Source: Candidatus Omnitrophota bacterium (GTDB lineage Bacteria; Omnitrophota; Gorgyraeia; Duberdicusellales; 4484-171). From it: 64,000 nt of DNA. Numbering within the stretch: position 1 is the first letter of the stretch; each line of letters begins with the position of its first letter. This document shows, in pieces, positions 1 to 62,899 of the stretch. Position numbers and translations under genes: made by a program. The notes beneath the pieces were generated by a model. That model had not been told where the DNA came from. It saw only the letters and a program-made list of their open reading frames with translations, and did not search any database. The stretch spans positions 44,773 through 108,772 of the forward strand of contig PMCS01000018.1 of NCBI GenBank assembly GCA_003154195.1. The letters are read 5' to 3'.

Positions 1-430
1 GGTCTTTAGGCAATTGGCCAGAGGCAAAAAGCTGTATCGAATCGAGGTACTTTTTTTCATCCCTTAACGCCGTCTGCTCATCCCTTAAGCCGCGTATTTC
101 ATCTCCCACTGCCGTGATCTCGGCTTCAACGCTGCGGATATTTTCGGCTGAAGCGGTGGTCAAATATTGGCTCTTTAACGTTGCCCCCATTATTTTTACG
201 TGATCATCCCCGGCGATGGCGCGGATTGAATTTTCTTCTACCTGCGACAGGATATTATCGAAGACTATCGTGTTATCCCCGGCTTCCAATTTCACCTGGG
301 CGACGCGGCTGACAAATGCCGAATCGTTATAAACGGTAACGGCATTGATACGCGACTCGGCTGTTTTATCCTGCGCGTAAACCCCCGCGGCCAAAAAAGA
401 CAAAACCAGAAAAGCTAAAAGTTTTCGCAT
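1..430 (-). CDS. Secreted DUF4139/DUF4140-like protein, C-terminal part truncated by window edge
   Basis: Minus-strand ORF starting ATG at 428-430 (MRKLLAFLVLSFLAAGVYAQ signal peptide) and running to position 1. Not in ORF track because it runs off the window. Domain assignment is from weak motif memory only. Confidence 0.4.
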   Translation of the reverse strand, partial: MRKLLAFLVLSFLAAGVYAQDKTAESRINAVTVYNDSAFVSRVAQVKLEAGDNTIVFDNILSQVEENSIRAIAGDDHVKIMGATLKSQYLTTASAENIRSVEAEITAVGDEIRGLRDEQTALRDEKKYLDSIQLFASGQLPKD

Positions 431-439
431 AAAACCTCC

Positions 440-871
440 TTATTCTTGACCCTTCTCTGCTGTAACGGTAATCGGCTCGCCGATTACCCCGGCGTAAAAC
501 ACAATAAGTTCAGTAACTTTATTCCCCTCATTTTTACCGTAGTGCCACTTGTTTACGACTTCAACAAGCGAATCGCCGGCCTTTAAATGCAGGGTCTCGT
601 TTTTTTCGGTGATGACCGTCAATTCACCCGCCAACACCACTCCGGCGTTGATCACGTTATGCTTGTGCAAAGCCAGTTGCGCCTTGGGTGGTATTCTTAT
701 TTTCAAAATCGTGACTTCCGGCGTTCCGGCGGGATAAGCGGGGAGCTTTTGGCCATCCCAGCTTAAACTACTTTTGGCTAACGGCGTTACCTCAATAGTT
801 TTTAAACTATTGTTAGCAGTGGCGCACGCCGACAATCCGGCCAGGTATAAAACAAAAAATAATTTTTTCAT
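440..871 (-). CDS. Cupin-fold lipoprotein/secreted protein
   Basis: N-terminal signal with lipobox-like LSAC; C-terminal cupin-like stretch (LHKHNVINAGVVLAGELTVITEKNETLHLKAGDSLVEV). Confidence 0.55.
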   Translation of the reverse strand: MKKLFFVLYLAGLSACATANNSLKTIEVTPLAKSSLSWDGQKLPAYPAGTPEVTILKIRIPPKAQLALHKHNVINAGVVLAGELTVITEKNETLHLKAGDSLVEVVNKWHYGKNEGNKVTELIVFYAGVIGEPITVTAEKGQE

Positions 872-1235
872 TAGAATATTCCGGCACTCCCTACGGGCGT
901 CAGCCCTTCAGTCGCGCTAACTTCTGGAAACTATTCTACTCCCGCAGGTAATTTTGGCAATGAAATTAACAGACTAAACACAAAACTCCTCGTTATCGTC
1001 TAAAACCCTGACATTCCTGAATAAATTCGGATATTTTTTAGCTTAAAAAGTATGTAGGGAAATAATTGTTTTGGGATTCAGGGCTTGAGCGGATTTTTTA
1101 ATGATTTGACCGCGCTTCCTTGTGTTGGCCGGCTACTCTTCTCCTAAAATAAAAATGTATTTAGTGGTAAATTTTAGGTTTTTACTCGGATTTTATGGTT
1201 TAGAACGGCAAAGCCGTCGCTCACATTAGCGAGCG

Positions 1236-1625
1236 TTAGGTTTTCCGTGGTGAATATTTTTCTGCTTCAGAATAAGACTTGTAAGTATGTACGGCTACCT
1301 GGTCAGAATAATGGAATAGGCTCATTATATTAAATCCTATATCCTTTTCTTGGTCGGGAATAATTCTTATAACCCTGGAAACTCCGCTCTTATTTAATAA
1401 ATCCATTACCTTTTCAATAAAAGAACTCGCGCTTATGTCCATCTGCTCCAAGGAAGATAAGTCGGTGAATACAATAAAACCTTTATTTAGCTTAGGGGCA
1501 ATCTCCTGAATTTGGGCATAGAATTGCTCTGCCTGTAAGAGATCATAAAAGCCTCCAAGGACGATATCTAATTTATTGCCCTTATCGCTTATTTTTAGGC
1601 TAAACATATTTTTCCCCTTAATCAA
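1236..1625 (-). CDS. Hypothetical protein
   Basis: 129-aa ORF with no recognisable motif; plausible coding composition. Confidence 0.35.
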   Translation of the reverse strand: MIKGKNMFSLKISDKGNKLDIVLGGFYDLLQAEQFYAQIQEIAPKLNKGFIVFTDLSSLEQMDISASSFIEKVMDLLNKSGVSRVIRIIPDQEKDIGFNIMSLFHYSDQVAVHTYKSYSEAEKYSPRKT

Positions 1626-1690
1626 TAAAAGCTTATTAGGAAATGAAACACAGGCGGCCCGTTTACATTCAGGCTGCGTTTTGAGTCAGC

Positions 1691-3202
1691 TCAGGAGAGC
1701 CCTTTGAAGGTGCGGGCCACGCGCTCAAGCACCGGAAGATGCTTTAAAAAAATATCTTTGGGGGCCGAGAAATGCATAACAAAAAAACCCTCTTTAGCCG
1801 GCAGGACATAGAACTTTTCCTTGAGTATTACGCTCTCGTCCGATTTGCTCTCAGGATGGAGATAGTGTTTTTCCTCGCGGTCAAACTCAAACGCTTTTCT
1901 TTTGTCCAGGGTTTTGGTCGTTACCGGGCTGTATTTGTCCGTCGCCGCGGCCATGTCATCTTGTGAATTGCTGTCCACATAGTCATTGTAATCCTTGAAA
2001 TATTTGTTGCCTTTGGAAAAGTACGAAACATATAAGGTCACCGGAACCTTTTCCGCGTCAGGGGCAATAAGTTCTATCTGAAAAACCCCCATCCTCTCCT
2101 GATCGGCCTTTTTCTCCAACCGCCAGTTCTCAGGCACTTCGCATGAAAAATAGCCGTCCCGAGAGAAGGCCTTGAAGCCTTCGCCTTCCGGTATCAAGGC
2201 TTTTACCTTACCATGATTCCCTCCCTCTACTGCGTTAGATAAAGGAGGAAGCGAAGGTTTTTCTTGTTGCGATGATTCATTTTTGCCGCTTCCCGATTTT
2301 TCCAGTAATTGAGAAATGTATTCAAGCCCATTTTTTTTAGCTAAAGATAAAGCAGTATCTCCATCTTTATCTTTTAAATCCGTCTTTGCGCCTTTTGCAA
2401 GAAGCGCCCGTACTATGGCTGCATCCCCATCGATAACAGCATCGATAAGCGGTGTTCTTCCAGTATTCAGCCACCCTTCATTTTGCGCATCCTCCTGCAC
2501 ATTCACATCAGCGCCTTTTTCAAGCAGGACATATATCGTTTTTGTCTTATCCCCTTCAGGGCCAAAGCGAGAGGAATAATGTTTACATGCTTCAAGCAAG
2601 GGGGTAACGCCGCCGCTTTTACCATTCACATCAGCGCCTTTTAAAATAAGGTATTTTACAACTTTAACATGCCCTTGGGCCGACGCCTCTATCAAGGGTG
2701 TTCTATCGCCGTCTTCTTTGCCGAAATCGATTTCTGCGCCATGTTCGATTAACAGCTTTACAATTTTAAGATTTCCATACATGGCGGCAGTGGATAACGG
2801 CGTTCCCGAGCGTCCCTTTTCGTTTATCTCATCTTCGTTGAGGCCTAAAAGAGCTGCCCTAAGGAATGCCTTTTTATATTTAGCATCACCTGGCTGCGCA
2901 GCAATTTTTGCCTTGAGGTCTTGGAATGCCTGGCTACTTTTATAAGCTTCCAGTGCCTTAAGAATTGATTTTACTTTTTTAATATCGCCCTTCTTAACAG
3001 CTTCCAACAAAGGAAAGTCGGGCGGAGGAAGAAAATCTATAATTGCGCCGCCATCCCTCTCGCCATATCTTACTGAATTGTTTTGTTCATCGTGGGGGAT
3101 CCGCCACTGTTCCCAGTCCATACCAAACGCTGGGTTTGAATAAAAAAAGACCGCAGAGCAGGCGCACGCAAGAAACATCGTCAAAATTTTTCTTTTCATC
3201 AT
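1691..3202 (-). CDS. Secreted ankyrin-repeat protein with C-terminal domain of the local paralog family
   Basis: Signal peptide MMKRKILTMFLACACSAVFFYSNPAFG. At least four ankyrin repeats (G-TPL-A---G---V--LL--GA--N pattern). C-terminal ~150 aa matches the domain in 3276-4454 and 5248-5889 (GYF..IP..W ... KFYVLP..GFFV..FSAP.D). Confidence 0.75.
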   Translation of the reverse strand: MMKRKILTMFLACACSAVFFYSNPAFGMDWEQWRIPHDEQNNSVRYGERDGGAIIDFLPPPDFPLLEAVKKGDIKKVKSILKALEAYKSSQAFQDLKAKIAAQPGDAKYKKAFLRAALLGLNEDEINEKGRSGTPLSTAAMYGNLKIVKLLIEHGAEIDFGKEDGDRTPLIEASAQGHVKVVKYLILKGADVNGKSGGVTPLLEACKHYSSRFGPEGDKTKTIYVLLEKGADVNVQEDAQNEGWLNTGRTPLIDAVIDGDAAIVRALLAKGAKTDLKDKDGDTALSLAKKNGLEYISQLLEKSGSGKNESSQQEKPSLPPLSNAVEGGNHGKVKALIPEGEGFKAFSRDGYFSCEVPENWRLEKKADQERMGVFQIELIAPDAEKVPVTLYVSYFSKGNKYFKDYNDYVDSNSQDDMAAATDKYSPVTTKTLDKRKAFEFDREEKHYLHPESKSDESVILKEKFYVLPAKEGFFVMHFSAPKDIFLKHLPVLERVARTFKGLS

Positions 3203-3275
3203 TATTTTTCCCCTATTCTTGCTTAATTTTCTGACATTACTTTGTATATTTTGTTCATGCGGCGCATCGCTGTCT

Positions 3276-4454
3276 TCATGTATTCGGCTTAAAAGACGCT
3301 ATAACCTGGTCGAAAATTTTCATCGATTCATCGGCTATGTCTTCAGGAGCTGAATACTCGAGAACATAGAAACCTTTGTTGCCTTTCAGGATAATGAGAC
3401 GTTTAAACATCGGGATTTTTACGGGATCGACTGCATAGGGAGGAATAAAGATAAATATTTTTTGGTCGAACTGGCTGGCAGCTCTTCCGGCAATGGTTAC
3501 GGTTTTGACCGGCCCGACCTTTTCTCCGGGCAAATTCATTCTTTCACGCGGATCGGCATTGAGCTTCAAAAACTTCTCCGCCGACGTGAAATAGCCATGG
3601 TCAGGGCCGTAATAGGTAATCGTTATGCTTGAAAATCCGCCGGCTTTATTCTTGGGCCCTTTCAGATTGACCCCATATTCTTTGGCTACCTCACCGCTGG
3701 CGATGCTCTCGTACTTTACCCAACTCTTCGGAATTTTTGCCATAAAATAATTTTTATAGCAGCAAAACTCAACTTCTTCAGGATTTTGCGGGATAATTGC
3801 TTTTTGAGCATCCTCGCTTATCTTGACCGCCTCATTGCCTGCAAAGGAGGCCAGCACGGATTCGTACTCTGCCAGCCCGGTTTCGGCCGCCGCCATTGAA
3901 GAGTAATAACTCAGGACATAAAATCCGTTCTTTACCGGGATGACGTGAAACTTTTCGTAGATGGGAATTTTTTTAGGCGAGATGGTCTCCGGCGGGACAA
4001 ACTCAAAAATCCTGCGCTCAAAAATTTTAGCGTAATACTTGCCCACCAGCCCGTTCTCCACGGGGCCGTACTTTTCGCCGTCCAGGGCGGCGCCCAACAC
4101 CGGCCGGGAGTGGGTTGCGATGAATTTTTCGGCTGTCTTGTGCAGCATATTGCCGGGGGCGTAATAGCGCACCGATATTTTTGAAACTATCCCGTCGGCG
4201 TCTTCCGGCCCCAGGAACTCCGCGCCATAGACTTTCTTTTCTTCCTGGGACAGCCCGAACGCGGCATCAGCCTTGTACCAGCCCGCCGGGATTTTCACCG
4301 TAAAATACCCATCCTCAGTATAAGCCGTCGCCGCCTCCTTTGCGCCGGCCTGGGCGGACGCGCCGGCGGGTAGAATTAAAACTGTTAATGCTAATATTTT
4401 GCTGATGTTTATAAAGACTGTCTTTAAAACCGCTAAATTATTTGTTCTGCTCAT
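3276..4454 (-). CDS. Secreted protein with two tandem copies of a ~170-aa paralog-family domain
   Basis: Signal peptide; internal duplication. Second copy is ~70% identical to 5248-5889. Shared C-terminus ESMKIFDQVIASFKPN(T/A). Confidence 0.6.
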   Translation of the reverse strand: MSRTNNLAVLKTVFINISKILALTVLILPAGASAQAGAKEAATAYTEDGYFTVKIPAGWYKADAAFGLSQEEKKVYGAEFLGPEDADGIVSKISVRYYAPGNMLHKTAEKFIATHSRPVLGAALDGEKYGPVENGLVGKYYAKIFERRIFEFVPPETISPKKIPIYEKFHVIPVKNGFYVLSYYSSMAAAETGLAEYESVLASFAGNEAVKISEDAQKAIIPQNPEEVEFCCYKNYFMAKIPKSWVKYESIASGEVAKEYGVNLKGPKNKAGGFSSITITYYGPDHGYFTSAEKFLKLNADPRERMNLPGEKVGPVKTVTIAGRAASQFDQKIFIFIPPYAVDPVKIPMFKRLIILKGNKGFYVLEYSAPEDIADESMKIFDQVIASFKPNT

Positions 4455-5255
4455 CTATTCCCTCCGCTATGATTTTTTTCCGTTTCGGCCAGTAAGGATC
4501 CCACTTCGGGGCTGCCTGCGCTCCTGGCCCAGTCGGCCGGGGTTTTTCCTTCGTTGTCTTTGGCGCCCCTGTTGGCCCCTTTACCCAGGAGATAACGAAC
4601 TATTTCAGGTTTCTTGCTTAGCGCGGCATAGTGAAGCGGCGTGACATCATTCGCATTCTTGTCGTTTATGTTGGCTGACTTTTCGCAAAGGAGCTGAACA
4701 ATCGGAAGATGGCCGCAATACGCCGCTGTGGCCAGCGGGTGTCGATCCTTGAAGTGTTCGCGCATTAACGTCTGCGCCATGGGCGATAAGATTGGATGCG
4801 ACATTCGTTAAACCCAGCTTGGCTGTCAGGTGCAGGGGGGTTGTGTTATCGACATCCCCGAGTTTTGTGTCTGCGCCGGCGGCAATAAGTTGCAGCGCGG
4901 CGTCTTGGCGTTCAAAGGCCACTGCCATATAAAGGGCGGTGCGTTTGAGTTTATCCTGCGAATTTAATGGGGCTTTGGCTTCTATGAGTATCCGGAGAGT
5001 ATTTGTATTGCCGGTCGCGGCGGCGTATGCCAGCACCATTATCCCATCTTCGGTAATGATGGCTTCAGGCAGCCTGGGATACCGGGCAATAAGAGCTTGG
5101 AGGCCATTTACATCACCGGCATCCAGAACAGCCGCAACATCTCTGGCCTGAAGCTCTTTTTCAGCGGCTGCTTTTGCCGCCGGCAAGCTTACCATGGACA
5201 ATGCTACGAGGAATATCGTCAAAATTTTTCTTTTCACCATCATAGCTTCATGCAT
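4451..5255 (-). CDS. Secreted ankyrin-repeat protein, apparently frameshifted (two overlapping ORFs 4647-5255 and 4451-4804)
   Basis: ORF 4647-5255 carries a signal peptide plus ankyrin repeats and then turns to non-ankyrin sequence. ORF 4451-4804 in another frame continues with clean ankyrin repeats (DVTPLHYAALSKKPEIVRYLLGKGAN). The overlap is around 4780-4804. Confidence 0.5.
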
Positions 5256-5889
5256 TCGGCTTAAAAGACGCGATAACCTGGTCGAAAATTTTCATCGACT
5301 CATCGACCATGTCTTCAGGAGCTGAGTACATGATAACATAGAAACCCTTATCGCCCTTCAGGATGATGAGGCGCTCAAACATCGGGATCTTTACGGGGTT
5401 GACGGCATCAGGAGGCATAAAAATAAATGCTTTTTTGTCTAACTGGTTGGCAGGTCTTCCGGCAATAGATACGGCTTTGGCGGTCCCGACCTTCTCTGCG
5501 GGTAAACTCCAGCTGCCGTCCGGACCGACATCGAATTTCAGAAAATCCTCCACCGACTTGAACCTTCTATGGTCGGGCCCATAATAGGTGATCTTTATGT
5601 ATGGAAATCCGCCGGCTTTATTCTTAGGCCCCTTCAGATCGACCCCATATTCCTTGTACACGTCAGCATCGCCGATCTCCTCATACTTGGCCCAACTCTT
5701 GGGAATTTTTGCCGTAAAATAATTGTTATAGCAGATGAACTTCTCGAAAACCTCTTTTTCCTTTGTGGACGACGCATTCGTTTCGGCGTAGCTTTGATCA
5801 ACAAAGCAAAAACCAATCATCGCAAAGATGACGGCAGCCAAACACATAAGCCTTGATCTTTTCACCGATATTATGGTTCGATTGTTCAT
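5248..5889 (-). CDS. Secreted single-domain member of the local paralog family
   Basis: Signal/TM anchor then the domain NYFTAKIPKSW...KITYYGPDH...FIFMPP...GFYV.MYSAPED...ESMKIFDQVIASFKPNA. 3' end and downstream DNA are near-identical to the 3276 region. Confidence 0.6.
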   Translation of the reverse strand: MNNRTIISVKRSRLMCLAAVIFAMIGFCFVDQSYAETNASSTKEKEVFEKFICYNNYFTAKIPKSWAKYEEIGDADVYKEYGVDLKGPKNKAGGFPYIKITYYGPDHRRFKSVEDFLKFDVGPDGSWSLPAEKVGTAKAVSIAGRPANQLDKKAFIFMPPDAVNPVKIPMFERLIILKGDKGFYVIMYSAPEDMVDESMKIFDQVIASFKPNA

Positions 5890-5902
5890 CTGTTCTTCCT
5901 GC

Positions 5903-7081
5903 TTATTTGGACATGTCCATGGGGGTAATAATAAAGTAATCCGAGCTATAAACGTCGGCCGGGCTAAAGGTAATACCCAGGAGTCTCTTTACCGGGGAAC
6001 TATTTTCCGGGATCTTGCGGCCGGCCTTGGCCAGAACCCATTGGCCCGCCTCCGAGCAGACCAGATTGTCATCGCCGTAAAGGCCATAGTTGGTATTGTC
6101 GATCCAGTTATATCTCTTTTCCGGCTCGCTGGCCAGCTCCTTGATTTCCAGTTCCTTGGCCGCGGCCAAGAGCTTGTTGGCTTCCTTATCGTTCAGCGGC
6201 TGCGCAACCGCGGCCGCGTAAACCGTGCGGGAACCATACCTCGTCTGTAACTCATCTTCGGTAATAATATGCGGGCCTTCGCCTCCCTTATTGTCCAAAA
6301 AGAACTTCTTGCCGTCAACCGTCTTGAGGTAGATCACTGCATGGGAAGCCGGCGATTTCCATTCCCAGGAGCCAAGCCGGTCGCCAAAACGGATCAGCTT
6401 ACTTTTTACGTCATCCGGCTCAAAAAGCAGCATGTCGCCGGACTTAAGTTGCGCAACCTGCTTATAAGGCAAGGGCGGGGCTTTCGTCTTTAAAGACGCG
6501 CAAATCGCGCTGCAATATTGGTTTGGTTCTTTGGTCCGCTGCTGAACAAGTTTCTTCTGGTTTTGCGACCAGGCGGCGGGATCATTCTCCAACTGCTTTT
6601 GCTGCGCTTCTACCATGGCTTTCTGCTTGAGGGAATCTTTCGCCAGCTTCAGATTCTGCTGTATGACCTTGTCGCCGGGGTTCAGCTTCAGCGCTTTCTG
6701 GTAACAGTCGATAGCGGCATTCCAGTCGCTATTCTGATAAGCGGCATTGCCTTTTTCATTCAGGGCATATACATCAGCCCTGCGTTTTTCTTCTTTCTGC
6801 CTTTCCTGTTCAGCCTTTAATGCTTTCTGCTTTTCCTGCGCCGCTCTCTGTTCGGCCATCTGCGCAGCCCTCTGTTTAGCCGTCTCTTCAGCCTGTTCAG
6901 TCCTCCACTCCGCCGCTCGTTGCAGCCGATCAGCTCTATCTTCATCTCTCCCTGAATTGTCTTGTCCGTCGCGGGGGATCCGCCACTGTTCCCAGTCCAT
7001 GCCAAACGCTGGGTTTGAATAAAAAAATACCGCAGAGCAGGCGCACGCAAGAAACATCGTCAAAATTTTTCTTTTCATCAT
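5903..7081 (-). CDS. Secreted coiled-coil/TPR-like protein with C-terminal permuted papain-like (NlpC/P60 superfamily, YiiX-like) domain
   Basis: Signal peptide identical to that of 1691-3202; charged coiled-coil region (AEQRAAQEKQKALKAEQERQKEEKRR); TPR-like YQKALKLNPGDK. C-terminal part has His-before-Cys arrangement (SHAVIYLK ... LVCSEAGQWV). Domain call is tentative. Confidence 0.45.
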   Translation of the reverse strand: MMKRKILTMFLACACSAVFFYSNPAFGMDWEQWRIPRDGQDNSGRDEDRADRLQRAAEWRTEQAEETAKQRAAQMAEQRAAQEKQKALKAEQERQKEEKRRADVYALNEKGNAAYQNSDWNAAIDCYQKALKLNPGDKVIQQNLKLAKDSLKQKAMVEAQQKQLENDPAAWSQNQKKLVQQRTKEPNQYCSAICASLKTKAPPLPYKQVAQLKSGDMLLFEPDDVKSKLIRFGDRLGSWEWKSPASHAVIYLKTVDGKKFFLDNKGGEGPHIITEDELQTRYGSRTVYAAAVAQPLNDKEANKLLAAAKELEIKELASEPEKRYNWIDNTNYGLYGDDNLVCSEAGQWVLAKAGRKIPENSSPVKRLLGITFSPADVYSSDYFIITPMDMSK

Positions 7082-16621: not shown

Positions 16622-17185
16622 TTACCTTTTAATGCCCGGCGATGATTTTCCCAGGTAAGCGTTGACGCGTTCTTCGATGATGAGCCGGGGGTTGGCTTTT
16701 ATTTTTTTCAGGTGTTCGAGCTGAGCTCCCAGCAAATTTATCTGGGCATCGATATTTTTGCCGTAATTATTCACATCGATGCTTGCTTCGACCAGGGAGG
16801 TAAGCTGCTGCCGCGCGTCTTGTTCCGGCAGCTTTCCGCTGTGGTACGCCGCGACAATCGCGGATATTTTTTTGCCTAGTTCTTTTTTTTCCAGGTACTT
16901 TTGATAAGCGGCCGGGTCTTTTTCTTTCATCTGCTGCATCATCCGTTCTTCCATCGCGTTTTGATTGCTAAGGTTGGATGGTTGGCGCATCGCCGAAGAC
17001 GGCATTGTCCGGAAAACGCTGGTAGTTGTCGACGTTTTAGTTTGTGTCGTTGTCGTTGACGCCGCAGGTGTTGTGCTGCTGGTCACTTTTTTACCGCTTG
17101 ATTTAATGACTACGTTCTCACCGTAGGCAAGAGATACGCCGATTGCGCTTACCGCTACGAATACTGATAACACAAATAGTCTCAT
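16622..17185 (-). CDS. Secreted Ser/Thr-rich hypothetical protein
   Basis: Signal peptide, poly-Thr/Ser linker, helical C-terminal domain. Confidence 0.4.
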   Translation of the reverse strand: MRLFVLSVFVAVSAIGVSLAYGENVVIKSSGKKVTSSTTPAASTTTTQTKTSTTTSVFRTMPSSAMRQPSNLSNQNAMEERMMQQMKEKDPAAYQKYLEKKELGKKISAIVAAYHSGKLPEQDARQQLTSLVEASIDVNNYGKNIDAQINLLGAQLEHLKKIKANPRLIIEERVNAYLGKSSPGIKR

Positions 17186-17342: not shown

Positions 17343-17376
17343 TTATAATTCAAAAAATGCGTTTTCCAACGCATTT
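17343..17376 (-). terminator. Rho-independent terminator downstream of 17383-19299
   Basis: Perfect inverted repeat ttcaaaaaatgcgtt..aacgcattttttgaa with flanking T run. Confidence 0.6.
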
Positions 17377-17382
17377 TTTGAA

Positions 17383-19299
17383 TTATCCGCTCGTATAAAC
17401 CGCGGCGATCAGGTAGGCTTTATATTTTTTACCCTGGTACTCCACAGTATCGGTAACTTTATTCCAATCGACGTTTTCCGTGGCCTTGCCCAGGGTATAA
17501 TTATGCACCAAGTCGTCGTTTTGCTTCTGGCCGTAACCGGCGGCATAAGAAGTCGTGATGTAGTCGCCGGCTTCGATTGGGCCGTTAATGTCGCATACCC
17601 ACACCCGGCCTTCGCCTACCGCATTGACAAAGCCTTTTTGCTCTTTACCTTTGTACCAGTGGCTGTCTAAATCGAATTTTTTCACAAAAACGCCGAGGAT
17701 CGTTTTATCATTAGGCGAATTCGCCAGCTTTACCGTGGGCAAAGTATAGGACAAAGATATTTCGTCCCTACTGTCCTTGCGCAAGCGCGTCTCTCCGGTA
17801 ACGCAGACGATCACCCCCGGTTTAAATGCCGAATAATCTTTGGGTAGTAAACAATCGTGCGCGCCGGTAAAAGTGGCATACTTGACGCCTGGCCCCTGCG
17901 CTAGAAAGTTAGTCCCGTCTCCATTAGATAAAAATGAAACAAGGGTGGTGCCATTGCTTACTACGCCGATTGCCCCTTGAAAAACTCCACCATAATTAAG
18001 TCCCGTACCGGCCACGCCGGTATAGGGATAAATATTATGATCAACTGTGGACCCGCTAGCCTCGCCATAAATACCAAAGCCGGAGTCGGACCGGCCGTCA
18101 ACGCCTTTACCGTTCGAGTTATATCCTAAAATGCCGTCGCCAAGGTCGGTGAAACTCCAACCATAGATACCTTCGTGAGTCTCGCTATAGCCTTTAACTC
18201 CGACACCGTTAGTGCTGCTGCCATAAACACCAAGGGCGTTGGTGCTGTCACCCCAAACACCGCCGCTGAAACCGCCGTCTCCCTTTACACCGTAATCATT
18301 ATTGTCAATACTAGTGCTATGACCATAAACGCCGATCGTCCCCATGCCATATACGCCGTTACCGGTACCTTCGCCATAACCGCTCACGCCATACGATGTT
18401 CCGCGGCCGCATACGCCATCCCCGGATGTTGCAAAGCCAAATACGCCATACGCCCCCCCATTGCCAACCACGCCGGTGTCGCTTAAACCATCGATAATCA
18501 TACCGGCCGCCGCAGTGATACCATACACCCCGGGCCCTCCGTTACCGACTATGCCACTGCCGCTCACATCATAGCCAATAGGGCTTGCCCCAGCAGCCTC
18601 ACCACACATGCCGATTGGCCCCGTGCCATACACGCCATATGTCGCTGTTCCATCGCCATACACACCGGTCGGTCCACTGCCATACACGCCATATGTCGCT
18701 CCTGCGCCGGCCACACCACTGCTGGCGGGCAGAATATCGGGCGCCCCGCCGCCCCGGCCCATTACACCATATGTAGTTCCATAAGCATATACACCATAGG
18801 GGTTTCCGTTGCCATACACGCCCATGGTGTTTGTGGTTGTGCCATACCCCATTACACCGGATGAGGAATCTGCTGTTCCATATCCTTTTACACCGGCGTA
18901 TGTACTAGTGCCATATACGCCAGCCGATGGCCCAGAGCCATACACGCCGTACCCGTTCAGCCCGGTAGCCGTACCATGAATCGCATCGCCGTCCGTGCTT
19001 CTTGATGTATCAAGCGGATAGGCGGGAGTTACCGTCCCGATTCCCACGTTACCTTCAACTATCAAATCGGCGTTGGCGTCTATTGGTGTTCCTGCACCGC
19101 CTGACCAGGTATACAGGGAAGGATTATAATAATTATCGCCGATTGCTATTTTCTTCGCGCGGAGTTCATTATAAACTCCGAACGGCGCGGGATAGTAGGT
19201 GGTAATCGTGATGGTTTCCTGGGCATAAGCGATCAGGGAAAAAATAGCAAGAAGAAAACAAAAAGCGGATAACCTGATTAATCTGGTGGTTATAGTCAT
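17383..19299 (-). CDS. Secreted Gly/Tyr-rich repeat surface protein (tail-fibre-like)
   Basis: Signal peptide. N-terminal TTYYPAPFGVY and GNVGIGTVTP motifs. ~350 aa of YGVYG/GVSGYG repeats; the DNA shows direct repeats such as ccatacacgccatatgtcgct x2. Globular C-terminal ~170 aa. Confidence 0.7.
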   Translation of the reverse strand: MTITTRLIRLSAFCFLLAIFSLIAYAQETITITTYYPAPFGVYNELRAKKIAIGDNYYNPSLYTWSGGAGTPIDANADLIVEGNVGIGTVTPAYPLDTSRSTDGDAIHGTATGLNGYGVYGSGPSAGVYGTSTYAGVKGYGTADSSSGVMGYGTTTNTMGVYGNGNPYGVYAYGTTYGVMGRGGGAPDILPASSGVAGAGATYGVYGSGPTGVYGDGTATYGVYGTGPIGMCGEAAGASPIGYDVSGSGIVGNGGPGVYGITAAAGMIIDGLSDTGVVGNGGAYGVFGFATSGDGVCGRGTSYGVSGYGEGTGNGVYGMGTIGVYGHSTSIDNNDYGVKGDGGFSGGVWGDSTNALGVYGSSTNGVGVKGYSETHEGIYGWSFTDLGDGILGYNSNGKGVDGRSDSGFGIYGEASGSTVDHNIYPYTGVAGTGLNYGGVFQGAIGVVSNGTTLVSFLSNGDGTNFLAQGPGVKYATFTGAHDCLLPKDYSAFKPGVIVCVTGETRLRKDSRDEISLSYTLPTVKLANSPNDKTILGVFVKKFDLDSHWYKGKEQKGFVNAVGEGRVWVCDINGPIEAGDYITTSYAAGYGQKQNDDLVHNYTLGKATENVDWNKVTDTVEYQGKKYKAYLIAAVYTSG

Positions 19300-19522
19300 A
19301 GCCTACCCCCTTCGTAAATTGCAATTATTATCCCCTTAGGTCGTTGTCGCAAAACCGAGCTCACTTAAAGTATAACCTATAAATCGTAAAAATTCAAGGG
19401 ATACCCAAAATTTCAACCTCAGCGGAGTCTTGTTAACAAACTGTCCTGCTGCCGGTAAAAACTTCTGTCGCCTGACCTGTTTTTTGGGGAATGAAAAATA
19501 AACAGTCAGGAATTAAATAAAT

Positions 19523-19569
19523 TATGTATACTTTTTATATCGCTATAGCAATATAAAAAGTATACAAAC
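19523..19569. promoter_or_regulatory. Near-perfect 47-bp palindrome (candidate operator), copy 1
   Basis: tgtatactttttatatcgctatagcaatataaaaagtataca. The 30-bp core is repeated at 20661-20693. Confidence 0.5.
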
Positions 19570-19735
19570 TTGTGGAATAGAAATGCTTGCTTGTTAGAGT
19601 TTTACCAAGAATATTGTCCGCCGAGGATGATTAGACCTGGTTATGTTTGTCAAAACGTAACCCTAGGCGAAAATGAGGTGTTCCCCAATGTGGCGGAATT
19701 TTATATCGGCGGTATGCGGATTAAGCAGGGAAATA

Positions 19736-20566
19736 TCACAATCTTATATTGCAGGTAGAAAACAGTTTTTGGGGGAGCCGGGCAATCAAGCGCTCTGCCT
19801 CTACGCGTTTTCGCCAGAGGCCGGAAAAGTCTTTGGGTAAAAACGGATCTTTTACCAATAATTGATTGAATTCATGAAACAATTCCCCGCCTTTGAGGTA
19901 GTACTCTTTAAAATTGACTTCGTTTGTTTCTATAATACGGGTGTAGTCATTACAGCTTTCTATTAGTTTGTCGTAACGGCTATCGAGATTTTGTAAATTC
20001 CATGCCCGGTCAGCAATCTCATCGATATTTTTTCCGGCAAAAAAATTACCTTCGTATATGCAAAGATATTTCAGTAATCCATATTCCCGGCATCGATGGT
20101 TGATTTGATGCGTATAGTCGTAGCAGGAAGCCCAGCAGCTGTCCTGAATCATCCCGAATCCCAGCGCCTGCAGGTTATGCCGTAACCACTCCCGGTGTTT
20201 TTTGCTTCGCTCGGGGATATCGTAAATAACGAGGCGCCATTTTTTATCCCATTTTTTTTGAAACTGTTGCGCTTTTATGTCTATGGCATCCGACAGAAAA
20301 CTGTATCGCCGGTCTTTATTAAAAGAAAACTGAAGTTTTTTTGCCTTAATTTTACGGATATAGCCTTTTCGGCATAACGATGCGGTTCTATTGTGTAATC
20401 TTTGCCGCGAATACAATTCGAATAATTGCGAACCGTGCAGGGCTTTCGGCCAAAAAGGCGGGGTGGAAAAAAAGAGGCAAAAATATAACATTTCCAAACT
20501 TTCTCTTAATAAAAAATCCGTCGCGTCGTTCATGCCGTATTTAACTCTGTTTAATGTTTTATTCAT
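19736..20566 (-). CDS. PaaX-like domain regulator (putative)
   Basis: WDKKWRLVIYDIPERSKKHREWLRHNLQALGFGMIQDSCWAS resembles the PaaX C-terminal domain WDGxWxLVxxxIPE..R..LR..L...GFG.L...VW. Confidence 0.45.
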   Translation of the reverse strand: MNKTLNRVKYGMNDATDFLLRESLEMLYFCLFFSTPPFWPKALHGSQLFELYSRQRLHNRTASLCRKGYIRKIKAKKLQFSFNKDRRYSFLSDAIDIKAQQFQKKWDKKWRLVIYDIPERSKKHREWLRHNLQALGFGMIQDSCWASCYDYTHQINHRCREYGLLKYLCIYEGNFFAGKNIDEIADRAWNLQNLDSRYDKLIESCNDYTRIIETNEVNFKEYYLKGGELFHEFNQLLVKDPFLPKDFSGLWRKRVEAERLIARLPQKLFSTCNIRL

Positions 20567-20654
20567 GTTTTTGTGCCAAGGTTATGTGTTGTTGCGATAG
20601 CGCTGGAAAATATGAAATATTTACGCCATAGGAACTGTTTTTTTAGGAGTATAT

Positions 20655-20698
20655 TAAAAATATTGCTATAGCAATATAAAAAGTATACAAAAATTAAG
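20655..20698. promoter_or_regulatory. Palindromic candidate operator, copy 2
   Basis: atattgctatagcaatataaaaagtatacaaaa, immediately upstream of the PaaX-like gene. Confidence 0.5.
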
Positions 20699-20718
20699 TA
20701 AAAAAACAAGTGTATTTT

Positions 20719-36928: not shown

Positions 36929-36984
36929 ATCCGCTCGTAGGCGGATTTATTTCTAAAATGATTATGCGGTTTACCGCATAATCA
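36929..36984 (-). terminator. Tandem stem-loops downstream of 36987-37874
   Basis: aaatccgctcgtaggcggattt and aaaatgattatgcggtttaccgcataatcatttt. Confidence 0.5.
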
Positions 36985-36986
36985 TT

Positions 36987-37814
36987 TTAGTCCCAGAGCT
37001 CATGAAAATTCTTTATCTGGTTATAGGTAAACACCGGTCCGTCTTTGCAGCAATAGTATGTTCCCAGGCGGCAGTGGCCGCATTTGCCGATGCCGCAGGA
37101 CATATTTTTTTCCATCGAAAGATAAAGATTATCTTCCTTAAAACCGAGCCCCAGTAATTTCAGGGTTACAAATTTCATCATGATCGGCGGCCCGCAAACA
37201 ATAGCTATGCCGCCTGGGCAATCCATTTCCAAATTTTCTAAAATTGTCGTAACCAGGCCGACATTGCCCTGCCATCCTTCTTCGCTTTTATCGACCGTAA
37301 TTTTAAAATCCAGCGCGTGCTGTTTCGGCCATTCGCTGATCTCATTCTTATATACCAGTTCTCTGGGATTTTTACAGCCGCCGCGAAAAATAAGATTTTT
37401 CAATTCGCCGCGCATTTCAAAAAGAGTATACATCAGGCTTCGGATCGGGGCAAAACCGCAGCCGCCGCCTACGACCAGGACTTCCCGGTTTTTGAATTTA
37501 TCGGTAGGATAACCGTTGCCCAGGGGGCCGCGCACTCCGATAATATCGCCGGGTTTCAGCAAGTGGATTTTCGATGTTACCTTACCGACTTTCATCACCG
37601 TCACTTCCATGATTTCTTTTACCGACGGCCGCGAGGACGGCGTAAAAAACGCTTCTCCGGACCCGGGAATAGTAATCGCGACAAATTGGCCGGTGCGAAA
37701 TTCCATTAGTTCCTTAGGCCGGAAACGAATGGTTATAATCGTAGGCGTTTCCGGGATAACTTCAAGCACCTGCGCTTCGATCGGCCGATAAGGATTCTCT
37801 TCTTTGCTGGGCAT
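36987..37814 (-). CDS. FAD/NAD(P)-binding [2Fe-2S] oxidoreductase subunit (PyrK/AsrB/sulfhydrogenase-gamma-like)
   Basis: Ferredoxin-reductase fold (RFRP...GQFV; GPLGNG; VVGGGCGFAP). C-terminal CGIGKCGHCRLG...C [2Fe-2S] motif. Start set at MPSKEEN. Confidence 0.75.
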   Translation of the reverse strand: MPSKEENPYRPIEAQVLEVIPETPTIITIRFRPKELMEFRTGQFVAITIPGSGEAFFTPSSRPSVKEIMEVTVMKVGKVTSKIHLLKPGDIIGVRGPLGNGYPTDKFKNREVLVVGGGCGFAPIRSLMYTLFEMRGELKNLIFRGGCKNPRELVYKNEISEWPKQHALDFKITVDKSEEGWQGNVGLVTTILENLEMDCPGGIAIVCGPPIMMKFVTLKLLGLGFKEDNLYLSMEKNMSCGIGKCGHCRLGTYYCCKDGPVFTYNQIKNFHELWD

Positions 37815-50496: not shown

Positions 50497-51516
50497 TCAT
50501 TTTATTAAACAATTTTCTACTTCTCGTAAGAAATTTTCGCTGTCTTCGATTATCATCTCTATATCCATGACGATTACCCGTATTTTCCCCGGCGGTAAAC
50601 CGGGAAGATGGTATTTATCTTTGCGGGTTATTATTATATCGTTTATTCCTTCATCTGCCAGCTCATTCTGAATTTTCTCGAATTCCTTTTCGCTTAATTC
50701 ATAGTGATCGGGGTAAGTTATTTTTTTCGCCACTTTTACCCCTTCTTTGCTAAGCATCTGGAAAAAACCATCGGGGTATCCGATAGCGGTAAGCGCCGCT
50801 GTGGGGCGGCCGCTAAAATCCCCGGAGTTAACGATATTATCCCGCAAATCGCAAAATTTTTTTATTTTATACCCGGAGGTAAATATTTTTAAATGAGGGG
50901 ACTTCTTTTTTGTTTCGGACTTGAATTCATTGAGGCCGGCCGCTTGCTCAGCGTGGTTAATAACAAGTATATTCGCGCGCTTTAACGAAGACAGCGGTTC
51001 GCGAAAGATTTGCGCCGGAATCAACCGGCGGGGAAGTTTTAATTCTCGCGCGCCCATCACTACAATATCGCATTGCCGGGCGAGCTTGCGGTATTGGAAA
51101 CCGTCATCAAGAATAAAAACGCCGTACTTTTCCGATAATTTTCCGGCTAACGCCGCCCGGTTTTTATCCGCGTAGACTATCGCCCCACTTTGTTCGATTA
51201 ATTTATTTTCATCGTCGCCGTATCCGCGGCGCAATATCGCGATTTTATAGCGCGCGGATAATTTTTGGTATAAATATAACGTGAGAGTTGTTTTACCGGT
51301 TCCTCCCCACGAAAGATTCCCGACACTGATTATTTTTTTTGTCGAATAAAAAATAGGGGTTATTTTTTTATCGTAAGCGAAATTGCGGATACCGACAACC
51401 GCGCCGTAAATCCCGGATAAAAATATCAACAAAGCGCGGAATAATACCGCGGCAATGTTTTTGTCATCACCGGCGAGGAAATCCACATACCATTGTTTTA
51501 ATCCAGATTTAAGCAT
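50497..51516 (-). CDS. lpxK: Tetraacyldisaccharide 4'-kinase
   Basis: VGNLSWGGTGKTTLTLYL P-loop; LpxK length and topology. Confidence 0.85.
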   Translation of the reverse strand: MLKSGLKQWYVDFLAGDDKNIAAVLFRALLIFLSGIYGAVVGIRNFAYDKKITPIFYSTKKIISVGNLSWGGTGKTTLTLYLYQKLSARYKIAILRRGYGDDENKLIEQSGAIVYADKNRAALAGKLSEKYGVFILDDGFQYRKLARQCDIVVMGARELKLPRRLIPAQIFREPLSSLKRANILVINHAEQAAGLNEFKSETKKKSPHLKIFTSGYKIKKFCDLRDNIVNSGDFSGRPTAALTAIGYPDGFFQMLSKEGVKVAKKITYPDHYELSEKEFEKIQNELADEGINDIIITRKDKYHLPGLPPGKIRVIVMDIEMIIEDSENFLREVENCLIK

Positions 51517-52829
51517 GATATTATTAATTTAACGTTATTTTCCGTGGCGCCGGTTTGCTCACGAAACACCTTAGCGCAATTCTTTTGTAATTTTTCGCGT
51601 TCGTCTTTATCGTTGATCAATAATATTAGTTTTGATGTTAATTCTTCCGTATCTCTTACCTGAATCCCCGCTTTTTCCGCATGGACAATTTCGGCGATAT
51701 CGCTGAAATTGTCCATGAACGGTCCGAAAATCGTCGGCTTTCCTAACGATATCGGTTCTAAAATATTTTGCCCGCCATGCTTTACCAGGCTGCCGCCGAC
51801 AAAACAAATATCGCTCAGCGCATAAAAATAGAGTAATTCGCCGATAGTGTCGAGCAAAAATACGGTATCGTTATTAACTTCGTTTTTTTTTGCCGCGCTC
51901 AGGCGTAGGGGTTTTAACCCTTCCGCGATTATCAGTTTTTCGATTTCCGGCGTTCTTTCGATGTGACGCGGCGCGATAATCAGCTTAATATCGCTGCGCT
52001 TCTTCCGGATTTCCTTGTACGCTCGCAGTGCGTATTCTTCTTCCGGACAATGGGTGCTGGCTGCAATTAAAACGATATTCCCCGGCGGAGCGATAATCCC
52101 GGAATATTTTACTTTAACTTTGGTCAGCGTATTGTTATCGAGATTTATATTATCGAACTTCATGTTACCGGTAATTTTTATCTTACTTTCGGGACAACCT
52201 AAGTCAATAAAGCGTTGCCGGTATTCTTCATTTTGAACCGCGACTATGGCGCATTCTTTTAACGCGTATTGCACGATAAATTTAAAACGTTTATAGCGAT
52301 TGATAGCTTTATCGGAAATTCTTGCGTTAATAATCGCAATCGGTATGTTTTTCCGCGATAAGCGAAAAAACAGATTGGGCCATATTTCTGTTTCCACGGC
52401 GATGAAAATTTTTAAATTGAACGTTTTAATAACGTGCCTGATAGCAAACGAGATATCGAAAGGGAAAAAAATTATTTTCGCCCGGCCGGGATACCTTTTT
52501 TTAGCTAAGCGATTGCCGGTTAAAGTGGTGGCAGAAATTATAATCTCGTAATCGCCGTATTCTTTCAGTTGTTTCAGTAAACCGTCTAAAAGATTGACTT
52601 CGCCGACGCTTACCGCCTGAATCCAGATACATTTTTTTCCCGGCGGCGGCGCCGGTTTGGTATCGGTAAACCCCAATTTTTCCTTCAGGGCGGCGAAAGT
52701 TATTTTTTTGCGCCAGAAATAAACCGGGAGATATACGATTAGCCCGGCAAAAAAAATAATATCGTAAAAAAAGAAAACGATATTTTCGATAAAAGCTTGG
52801 GATTGATTTTTTTCGGTTATATCGGGCAT
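51498..52829 (-). CDS. waaA: 3-deoxy-D-manno-octulosonic acid (Kdo) transferase
   Basis: N-terminal TM; IWIQAVSVGEVN (HxxSxGE variant). Confidence 0.85.
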   Translation of the reverse strand: MPDITEKNQSQAFIENIVFFFYDIIFFAGLIVYLPVYFWRKKITFAALKEKLGFTDTKPAPPPGKKCIWIQAVSVGEVNLLDGLLKQLKEYGDYEIIISATTLTGNRLAKKRYPGRAKIIFFPFDISFAIRHVIKTFNLKIFIAVETEIWPNLFFRLSRKNIPIAIINARISDKAINRYKRFKFIVQYALKECAIVAVQNEEYRQRFIDLGCPESKIKITGNMKFDNINLDNNTLTKVKVKYSGIIAPPGNIVLIAASTHCPEEEYALRAYKEIRKKRSDIKLIIAPRHIERTPEIEKLIIAEGLKPLRLSAAKKNEVNNDTVFLLDTIGELLYFYALSDICFVGGSLVKHGGQNILEPISLGKPTIFGPFMDNFSDIAEIVHAEKAGIQVRDTEELTSKLILLINDKDEREKLQKNCAKVFREQTGATENNVKLIISCLNLD

Positions 52830-61564: not shown

Positions 61565-61622
61565 TATTTTCTTAAATCCGCCGCAGGCGGATAGGCTATA
61601 AAAATATTGCGGCATACCGCAA
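61565..61622 (-). terminator. Tandem stem-loops downstream of 61628-62899
   Basis: aatccgccgcaggcggat and aaaatattgcggcataccgcaatatttt. Same two-hairpin architecture as at 36929-36984. Confidence 0.5.
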
Positions 61623-61627
61623 TATTT

Positions 61628-62899
61628 TTATTCGTACTTAATTTCGTCTAAATAGAATACTATACCATTTCCGCCATTAACGTCGGTGTTGGTTGCCCAG
61701 CAAAAACCGCCGATTATGTAAGAAAGGTCGCGGCCGGTCAGGTCGATTTCGTATTGTTTCCATTCGGTCGTTAAGGTAATCGGCCCGATGCTGTTGCTGT
61801 CGGAGTCGATATAGTCGCCGCTGGAGATGCCGCCGATTTTGAATTCGTTGATGACTTCCCCGCCCTTATCGCCTCTTACCCAGAAGGTAAGTTTTTTCGC
61901 GCCGGTTAAATTAAAACCCGTCTTAGGAACTGTCCCCCAGTTATTGGCCGGTTGCTGCCAGAAAATTCCTGCCCAGCCGGTTCCCGACTTATTTTCATAT
62001 TCGACGCGGATACAGGTTTGGCCGCTAAAGGGAAGGTTTTTCCATTTAGGGTCGAACTTTAAGTCTTTGGCCGCCGTCGCCGGCATCCAGCCGCTGGGGA
62101 TATAGTGGTTGTCCAGCGAACCGGCGTCGGAATAGACATAAAACGGGAAATTTATCTTCTTTTCCGTTTTCTTTAAATCTTTTTCATAAACGTAACCGAT
62201 ATTGTCGAGGTAAATGGTTTGTTCTCCGCCGGCCTGGTCGGCATTAAAAACGAGACACAATCCGCCGTTTACGTAAGAAAGGTCTTCTCCCGCCAGGTTA
62301 AGGGAAAACTCCTGCCACTCTTTGGTTAATTTATAGGGGCCGTTTTCTACGCTCAGGGAGTCAGCGTAAGGAAGCGGTTCGTTGGTCGTCTGGTTTTTAG
62401 TAATGCCCCCGATTTTGGCGATAGTAATGACTTCGCCGCCGTTTTTCCCGCGCGCCTTAAATGTAAGTTTATTAAAACCGCTTAAGTCATAACCGGTATT
62501 TTTTGTTCCCCAGTTATTTTGGGCCGATTGCCAGTAGATACCCGCCCAGCCCTGTCCGGCTGATTTTTTTGCGCTATAAACAATCTTAAGACAGGTAGCG
62601 CCGCTGGCCGGATTATCGGTGGACTGATCGCTAAATTGTAAATCGTTGACATCGCCCATCCAACCGCTGGGGATAAAATGATTTCCCGTAGCGCTTTTTT
62701 CGGTGAAAATATCAAACTTTTCGCCGGTTACTTTTTTCGCTTTTTTCTCCGGCAGCGCGGGGGGGGTAACGGGAGCCGCCGCGGGAGCGGCTTCTGCCGC
62801 TATATTTCCTGTTTGCGTGGTTGTGTTTACGGCTTGCGCGAAAGCCACAAAGCTGAATAGCCCCAATCCTAAAAGTGTTAACCCAAGAATCTTATGCAT
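61628..62899 (-). CDS. Secreted protein with two tandem ~170-aa beta-sandwich (CBM-like) domains
   Basis: Signal peptide. Internal duplication (HFIPSGWMGD...GWAGIYWQ...NNWGT...LTFKARGKNGGEV vs HYIPSGWMPA...GWAGIFWQ...NNWGT...LTFWVRGDKGGEV). Confidence 0.5.
   Translation of the reverse strand: MHKILGLTLLGLGLFSFVAFAQAVNTTTQTGNIAAEAAPAAAPVTPPALPEKKAKKVTGEKFDIFTEKSATGNHFIPSGWMGDVNDLQFSDQSTDNPASGATCLKIVYSAKKSAGQGWAGIYWQSAQNNWGTKNTGYDLSGFNKLTFKARGKNGGEVITIAKIGGITKNQTTNEPLPYADSLSVENGPYKLTKEWQEFSLNLAGEDLSYVNGGLCLVFNADQAGGEQTIYLDNIGYVYEKDLKKTEKKINFPFYVYSDAGSLDNHYIPSGWMPATAAKDLKFDPKWKNLPFSGQTCIRVEYENKSGTGWAGIFWQQPANNWGTVPKTGFNLTGAKKLTFWVRGDKGGEVINEFKIGGISSGDYIDSDSNSIGPITLTTEWKQYEIDLTGRDLSYIIGGFCWATNTDVNGGNGIVFYLDEIKYE

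Follow-up and report, generated by a model that had tools for sequence, protein, structure and literature searches.

PaaX is the phenylacetyl-CoA-responsive repressor of the paa catabolon. The Escherichia coli protein represses its own promoter and has the operator TGATTC-N27-GAATCA; as of a 2022 review, no structure of a PaaX-fold protein in complex with its operator was available (PMC9493321). Here, we analysed a stretch of 64,000 nucleotides (the window) from a Candidatus Omnitrophota bacterium (assembly GCA_003154195.1, contig PMCS01000018.1, positions 44,773 to 108,772 of the forward strand), in which the gene of a 276-residue PaaX-like protein (19736–20566, minus strand) is bracketed by two copies of a palindrome. 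An initial annotation had taken gene and palindromes for a dedicated regulator-operator pair controlling a giant Gly/Tyr-rich surface protein encoded next to them. We found that the bracket is a trait of the family to which the gene belongs, with a centre common to all loci and arms private to each, and that the palindromes are very probably the cognate sites of the PaaX-like protein.

Comparison with PaaX, Cas2 and other described systems

The product of the PaaX-like gene combines a winged helix, a central Cas2-like domain and a C-terminal PaaX_C helical domain, the same succession as in E. coli PaaX (8a39). Pfam searches detected PaaX_M (E=1.6e-21) and PaaX_C (E=4.9e-8), the latter match bearing out by hidden Markov model an assignment made in the initial annotation. 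The AlphaFold (AF2) model of the protein, with a predicted local distance difference test (pLDDT) of 84, has 8a39 as its best match in the Protein Data Bank (E=1e-9, 260 aligned columns; Foldseek), followed by Rv0674 (3kfw) and 3l09. Within the N-terminal 100 residues no Pfam family was matched, PaaX_N included; the family profile aligned with the winged helix of MecI/BlaI (positions 18–78, E=1.8e-4), and the model places a helix at residues 54–66 and then a beta-hairpin at residues 70–82, as expected for a recognition helix and its wing. The start at 20566 is backed by the conserved N-terminus of the homologues, M-x-K-T-[VL]-N-[KR]. The protein has the PaaX fold, yet it is no true PaaX, since it scores 60 bits against the PaaX equivalog TIGR02277, whose cut-off is 264.55, and since no paa catabolic gene lies among the 12 neighbouring open reading frames (ORFs) scanned. 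Among these neighbours are a HAD hydrolase, two radical-SAM proteins, HypA, HycI, a ferredoxin, the Gly/Tyr-rich protein, a 187-residue protein with no significant family match, a cyclase, a metallophosphoesterase and RmuC. The designation PaaX-like regulator is hence upheld by the two domains and the fold, and not by the score and gene context of a true PaaX. The predicted site of the window resembles the E. coli operator in that 6-bp half-sites are spaced about three helical turns apart (GTATAC-N28-GTATAC compared with TGATTC-N27-GAATCA). In contrast, E. coli paaX shares a transcript with paaY and is not flanked by a pair of repeats, whereas the gene in the window is stand-alone and bracketed.

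In Cas1–Cas2 complexes, the Cas2 dimer lies along duplex DNA. The central domain of the window protein has the ferredoxin-like fold and the motifs of Cas2/VapD-type nucleases; its model matches many Cas2 structures, and TIGR01573 (Cas2) is hit with 26.4 bits for a cut-off of 24.5, over residues 110–147 only. The aspartate of the Cas2-type FDI/YDI motif, D116, together with D107, R125 and S143, is invariant in 97 of the 97 bracketed family members described below, and Q141, which belongs to a Q-x-S motif, is present in 95 of the 97. The window protein thus keeps two motifs that E. coli PaaX lacks, the equivalents of D116 and Q141 being replaced there by other residues or a gap. Unlike Cas2, the domain is fused to a winged helix and is accompanied by two flanking palindromes rather than by an array; neither cas1 nor any other cas gene was found among the scanned neighbours, and no repeat array in the 64-kb window. 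A defence system was rejected, PADLOC giving the Cas2 domain match alone, and so was a CRISPR-like array: beyond the window, the six-site family locus L026 is a whole-unit tandem duplication without unique spacers. At this locus (5355–5740), an 87-bp unit holding a family-type palindrome is present as 4.4 tandem repeats upstream of the family gene, and one more copy lies downstream.

Two operator sets cooperate by looping in phage lambda, where cI stands between OR and OL, and at the lac and gal auxiliary operators. The window locus is similar to these by analogy only, as a regulator gene between two sites of its own, one of them at the promoter; it differs in that the bracket is a whole-family trait with locus-specific sites and in that the spacing is without helical phasing. 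We know of no higher-order oligomerization of the window protein. The RAYT/REP and IS200/IS605 systems share with the family a single gene flanked by matching palindromes and cassette-like homology boundaries. They differ from it, since the window protein has no HUH/Y1 transposase domain, its palindrome occurs twice in 64 kb instead of being dispersed, and the site pattern is bipartite and double-stranded, not that of a hairpin. We found no description of such a bracket arrangement in the searchable literature, the coverage of which is incomplete, so that its novelty is unproven.

Two copies of one palindrome bracket the PaaX-like gene

The repeat is a 32-mer, ATAT(C/T)GCTATAGCAATATAAAAAGTATACAAA, present twice on the plus strand (19537–19568 and 20660–20691) with one mismatch between the copies; the pair reported in the initial annotation therefore exists, its coordinates being off by 1–2 bases. 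The degenerate 32-mer pattern matches both copies with 0 mismatches and gave 0 matches in 100 shuffles, and the repeat can be extended to 43 nt (19526–19568 and 20649–20691, 86% identity). The downstream site (19526–19568, no strand assigned; copy 1 of the initial annotation) contains a 40-bp core, GTATAC-N28-GTATAC at 19526–19565, in which 19 of the 20 pairs are complementary and of which none is expected in shuffles. It is centred between 19545 and 19546 on the motif GCTATAGC (19542–19549), and extends to 52 bp with 88% complementarity, in agreement with the near-perfect palindrome first reported around this copy. The upstream site (20649–20691, likewise without strand; copy 2) is centred between 20668 and 20669, with the same motif at 20665–20672; a perfect 18-bp centre, ATATTGCTATAGCAATAT, is kept there and the gene-proximal arm is degenerate (24-nt arms, 79% complementary). 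Within the 64-kb window, where up to 3 mismatches, half-sites and the centre were all searched, a third copy is absent. Chance or a common repeat, the latter a possibility that the initial annotation had itself raised for its 30-mer, was rejected: none is expected by chance, and no further copy was found in the 64 kb or in 172 other loci.

On the minus strand, which carries all window ORFs of at least 190 residues, the order is HAD hydrolase, upstream copy, PaaX-like ORF, downstream copy and Gly/Tyr-rich 638-residue protein. The centre of the upstream copy lies 102 bp upstream of the ATG of the PaaX-like ORF (20566). That of the downstream copy lies 190 bp past the stop codon of the same ORF and 246 bp before the start codon of the Gly/Tyr-rich gene; measured from the start of this copy, the ATG of the latter gene (19299) is 227 bp away, close to the 230 bp first estimated. 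A consensus scan gave a promoter-like site, TTTACT-18 nt-TATATT (20673–20702, minus strand), with 9/12 matches, as a pattern match only. It is the sole promoter-like match just upstream of the PaaX-like ORF, and its -10-like hexamer, in the match read from 20702 to 20673, lies inside the upstream copy and adjoins its centre. Judged from this consensus match alone, the upstream copy would occupy the classical position of a repressor site, and the autoregulatory placement that had been proposed for it stands with the same qualification.

Across 1.5 kb, three assemblies of the source organism differ at one point only, where a 9-bp indel affects the degenerate arm of the upstream copy. The indel, AATATTTTT (L173 compared with window 20649–20668; alignment columns 113–121), leaves a shorter, perfect 22-bp palindrome. 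A 17-nt motif, GA(A/C)CTGTTTTTT(T)(A/G)GGA, recurs in the same region at 19474–19490, 19760–19776 and 20632–20648 with 76–82% identity; one of its copies abuts the upstream palindrome and another lies 36 nt beyond the downstream one. This recurrence may be due to chance in AT-rich DNA.

The bracket is a family-wide trait

We gathered 168 family loci from genome and metagenome collections, mostly from Patescibacteria/CPR (Candidate Phyla Radiation) and some from Omnitrophota; genes in the related loci were called from ORFs by a simple procedure. For each family ORF, the score took into account whether a palindrome lay upstream, whether one lay downstream and how similar the two were. A bracket made of two ~40-bp palindrome copies scored above the 95th percentile of controls at 97 of the 137 non-redundant loci, and above the 99th percentile at 78. 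In a cleaner control, consisting of 574 non-family genes of the same loci, 3.7% were counted as bracketed. Exactly two sites are present at 87 of the 97 bracketed loci, with family medians of 39 bp from palindrome centre to start codon and 38 bp from stop codon to palindrome centre. A scan blind to gene position found 215 such palindromes in 1.47 Mb, where 3–5 were expected; for 180 of these, a family gene is no more than 300 bp away. The homologues at L001 and L003–L005 (43–44% identity) have 2–3 flanking copies of a 33–40-bp palindrome, whose sequence is different at each locus. About 70 of the 97 bracketed proteins are short forms without PaaX_C; hence, the bracket goes with the winged-helix and Cas2-like core. 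The family as a whole amounts to 4,604 cluster representatives at E <= 1e-10. A conserved partner gene was searched for by clustering 442 neighbour proteins and rejected, the clusters being housekeeping genes only (the largest were ThrRS, AspRS, PBP2 and RseP).

Several family loci have features of their own. L128 (2600–7050) holds two short-form family genes (3643–4182 and 6426–6962), each with its own palindrome type. Extra palindrome copies at this locus also flank a 170-residue ORF (2796–3308) and a 143-residue ORF (5611–6042), the latter with a paralogue at 4560–5045; both ORFs are possible additional targets. The two short forms carry near their N-terminus an uncharged hydrophobic stretch of ~27 residues, for example ILLGIAGVGGILLITVIAPGAIGLLAPLL, which looks like a transmembrane helix and not like the first helix of a winged helix. 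At L006 (5148–7958), a 37%-identical homologue from an Omnitrophota metagenome-assembled genome (MAG) is encoded in a type IV pilus/type II secretion system cluster, with a pilin gene on one side and pilM on the other; an inverted repeat, ATAACATT...AATGTTAT, lies upstream, and a downstream copy is absent. At L003, a telomere-like run of AAACCCT heptamers (5762–5812) stands at the 3' end of a 4,644-residue ORF, just before the first palindrome. At L001, dnaA is the gene that follows the cassette.

Anatomy and specificity of the sites

We aligned the sites on their centres and analysed symmetry and upstream/downstream identity by offset. At offsets 1–4, the sites are 75–98% symmetric and have the same bases in all loci, [GA]C[GT][AG]|[TC][CA]G[CT], where position +3 is a G in 96%; GCTATAGC, ACGATCGT, GCGATCGC and GCGACCGC are the most frequent centres. 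Symmetry is 50–69% only at offsets 5–10 and reaches 75–88% at offsets 11–18, where the upstream and downstream copies of a locus are 72–88% identical and the bases are locus-specific, with no common preference. Mismatches show no bias of G·U over A·C (78 vs 74 at downstream copies, 77 vs 83 at upstream copies), and a T-rich run follows the downstream copy at 10 of the 97 loci only. Because centre and arms are symmetric while the middle zone is low, and because there is neither a G·U bias nor a regular T-run, the conservation is as expected of a double-stranded operator that a symmetric dimer contacts in its centre and in two half-sites far apart.

The divergence of the family is informative as to which part of the protein goes with which part of the site. 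Among pairs of members with a Cas2-like identity of at least 0.6, arm similarity increases from 0.36 to 0.71 as N-terminal identity rises. A global correlation of arm similarity with domain identity was discarded (rho ~0.02–0.04), being swamped by unrelated pairs, and the stratified analysis alone is informative. In the paralogues L047 and L087, which share one contig, the Cas2-like part is 74% identical at the DNA level, with winged-helix region and arms diverged. At L128, L132 and L134, the palindromes are 97–100% identical vs 76–79% for the DNA of the genes. From these three observations, we infer that the variable winged helix would read the variable arms, and that the invariant Cas2-like core would face the invariant C-N4-G centre.

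A probable self-regulating unit and alternative explanations

A cognate regulator-operator pair is well supported by the sequence comparisons above. We consider it fairly probable that the unit is a cognate repressor-operator system, in which the upstream copy serves autorepression and the unit has, in the downstream copy, a second site that co-evolves with the first; binding by the PaaX-like protein, repression and the role of the second copy are what we infer from these patterns. A dimeric PaaX-fold protein, with its Cas2-like domain for dimerization, would bind the 40-bp bipartite palindrome. Its two winged helices would read the outer arms, which are GTATAC in this locus, and its Cas2-like core would sit over the C-N4-G centre, here GCTATAGC. 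Bound to the upstream copy, which overlaps the putative promoter of its own gene, the protein would repress itself. The downstream copy would most likely either cooperate with the upstream one via a loop or be a protein roadblock at the 3' boundary. By loop or by roadblock, the gene would end up tightly self-limited and insulated; in the window, occupancy of the downstream copy would in addition keep read-through transcription out of the Gly/Tyr-rich gene.

Several observations weigh against this account. The window copies are unusually far from the gene, at 102 and 190 bp compared with the medians of 39 and 38 bp, and it is the upstream one, the presumed repressor site, that carries the degenerate arm. 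Promoter-like matches occur at 48 of 97 upstream copies vs 30 of 97 downstream copies, a modest excess. Helical phasing of the distance between upstream and downstream copies is absent (Rayleigh p ~0.9), so that looping is without positive support. In related loci, we also found ~30 orphan palindromes that are solitary, mostly intergenic and away from family genes, with other arms; they may serve other paralogues as further targets or represent empty sites. Finally, a purely self-regulating protein has no evident purpose, and the real output may be other targets or, alternatively, an activity of the Cas2-like domain.

The account given in the initial annotation, that the regulator is dedicated to the Gly/Tyr-rich secreted protein (17383–19299, minus strand) and that the downstream copy is the operator of that gene, was weighed against the position of the bracket in the family. 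The protein is not giant, having 638 residues; it is, as described, repetitive and rich in Gly (20%) and Tyr (8%), and it has a signal-peptide-like N-terminus. No Pfam or NCBIfam family was matched, and distant relatives carry PF13884, a tail-fibre/endosialidase-chaperone domain. The downstream copy does lie in the 436-bp intergenic region upstream of the Gly/Tyr-rich gene, on the same strand, and its distance of 190 bp from the regulator stop, compared with the family median of 38 bp, could indicate co-option; moreover, the homologues at L001 and L003, which are among the closest, also adjoin very large ORFs without Pfam match. However, these ORFs (2,210 residues, 1–5914, at L001; 4,644 residues, 1–5777, at L003) precede the regulator instead of following it, and a tblastn comparison gave no similarity between them and the Gly/Tyr-rich protein. 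The promoter-like sites of the Gly/Tyr-rich gene (19397–19369 and 19352–19324) are ~150–220 bp downstream of the centre of the copy, with no overlap. The bracket is formed whatever lies downstream: at 45 of 87 family loci, the gene on that side is in convergent orientation and has no promoter there to be controlled, so that promoter function is not a general property of the downstream copy. Nor are the two families linked in either direction, since none of the 168 family loci has a homologue of the Gly/Tyr-rich protein, and none of the 4 loci with such a homologue (contigs of 14–382 kb) has a PaaX_M gene within 4 kb. With a family-wide bracket, convergent neighbours and no linkage elsewhere, a dedicated regulator-target pair is therefore not supported, and we regard it as improbable; the cognate pairing proposed at the outset stands, but neither dedicated control of the neighbour nor its inclusion in the regulator-operator unit is supported. 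The downstream copy is best explained as part of the regulator unit, and it may affect the Gly/Tyr-rich gene incidentally, for example by blocking read-through. The Gly/Tyr-rich gene looks monocistronic, as a terminator-like palindrome (17346–17385) starts at its stop codon.

The arrangement of palindrome, gene and palindrome could also be a mobile or selfish cassette, its palindromes being ends or recombination sites whose centre is nicked, cleaved or synapsed by the Cas2-like domain. Where neighbours are non-homologous, DNA homology ends 12–24 bp outside the upstream centre and 16–35 bp outside the downstream centre, and where they are syntenic it continues into them; yet selection on nothing but the gene and its sites, with saturated intergenic DNA, should give boundaries just as sharp. 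Cassettes of 80–84% protein identity stand in unrelated contexts (L128, L132 and L134), and family genes are co-directional with their downstream neighbour in 48% of cases vs 76% of background adjacent pairs, a share for which such selection would account equally well. On the other hand, many orthologues are syntenic beside ThrRS or AspRS genes, which points to vertical inheritance, and the family showed no multi-copy elements of identical sequence; the paralogues of a single MAG are divergent and have different arms. The invariance of the Cas2-like motifs, including two aspartates, in 97 of 97 members, when E. coli PaaX is without the D116 and Q141 equivalents, is what an active core would predict, and the solitary orphan palindromes could be its empty sites. 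Against this, the protein has no known recombinase or transposase domain, and no family member occurs in 2.9 million viral contigs, for which reason a phage origin was rejected too. Palindrome centres show no excess of contig ends (10 observed vs ~8.6 expected); a Logan contig, L174, whose 3' end falls exactly at the centre of the downstream palindrome (window 19546 equivalent), was accordingly treated as an assembly artefact and rejected as a hint of cleavage. Taken together, we hold such a cassette to be unlikely. Quite unlikely, too, is an undescribed autonomous module in which the winged-helix/Cas2-like fusion would cut, nick or synapse its own two 40-bp repeats at the C-N4-G centre, the winged helix reading the private arms and the Cas2-like core acting at the centre with its conserved aspartates. 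If it existed, this module would be an excisable, invertible or self-addictive cassette with many orthogonal specificities in CPR and Omnitrophota genomes, and could be a living Cas2 homologue tied to palindromic repeats outside CRISPR. The palindromes might instead act as RNA hairpins, the downstream copy terminating or stabilizing the regulator mRNA and the upstream copy terminating the preceding gene, with a similarity that is incidental or due to duplication. Both copies are indeed just past stop codons of same-strand genes, at L001 and L009 the palindromes are built like bidirectional terminators (A-run, stem, T-run), and the downstream copy of the window was picked out as terminator-like in a consensus scan. 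The minus-strand RNA of this copy is predicted to fold at -23.4 kcal/mol (z = -6.5); as TAATTTATTT comes after it, the copy could also terminate the regulator transcript. However, the upstream copy folds poorly, and in the window the T-run is 5' of the centre and the A-run 3' of it, the reverse of the intergenic palindromes at 17346–17385, 36952–36991 and 61595–61634, which have an A-run/GC-stem/T-run form and are probably bidirectional intrinsic terminators. Across the family, pairing is lowest, at 50–69%, in the middle of the would-be stem (offsets 5–10), G·U is not favoured over A·C and the T-rich run is confined to the 10 downstream copies mentioned above; besides, terminators would neither co-vary in pairs nor keep a universal C-N4-G centre. 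Hairpins are thus a very unlikely explanation for the bracket. A known RNA family was rejected as well, with sub-threshold matches to microRNA-type hairpins only, due to the palindrome itself.

The reading as a self-regulating repressor-operator unit corrects the annotation of the window, in which the second palindrome is not to be read as the operator of a surface protein. Beyond the window, a large, barely studied family, abundant in the small genomes of CPR and Omnitrophota, follows a rule that is simple and strongly non-random: two bipartite sites of its own, with a universal centre and private arms, stand around each gene. The family would thereby offer ready-made, predicted protein-site pairs with dozens of orthogonal specificities, and a testable model for DNA reading by PaaX-fold dimers. 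It raises the question of why a regulator fences its own gene, to which looping, insulation and mobility are candidate answers.

Other observations in the window

A further 40-bp palindrome (51679–51718, 18 of 20 pairs complementary, GCATGGACAATTTCGGCGATATCGCTGAAATTGTCCATGA) lies inside a 443-residue ORF (51498–52829, minus strand), and none is expected by chance; its centre, GAT|ATC, is outside the C-N4-G type of the family. An ancestral synteny between the cyclase of the window and the cyclase beside the L003 homologue was rejected, the similarity being at domain level only (31% over 110 residues). A small ORF follows the Gly/Tyr-rich gene and two of its homologues, at 16622–17185 in the window (187 residues), 6109–6597 at L169 (162 residues) and 6206–6637 at L170 (143 residues). 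None of the three has a significant Pfam match, and the small ORF may be a conserved partner of the Gly/Tyr-rich genes.

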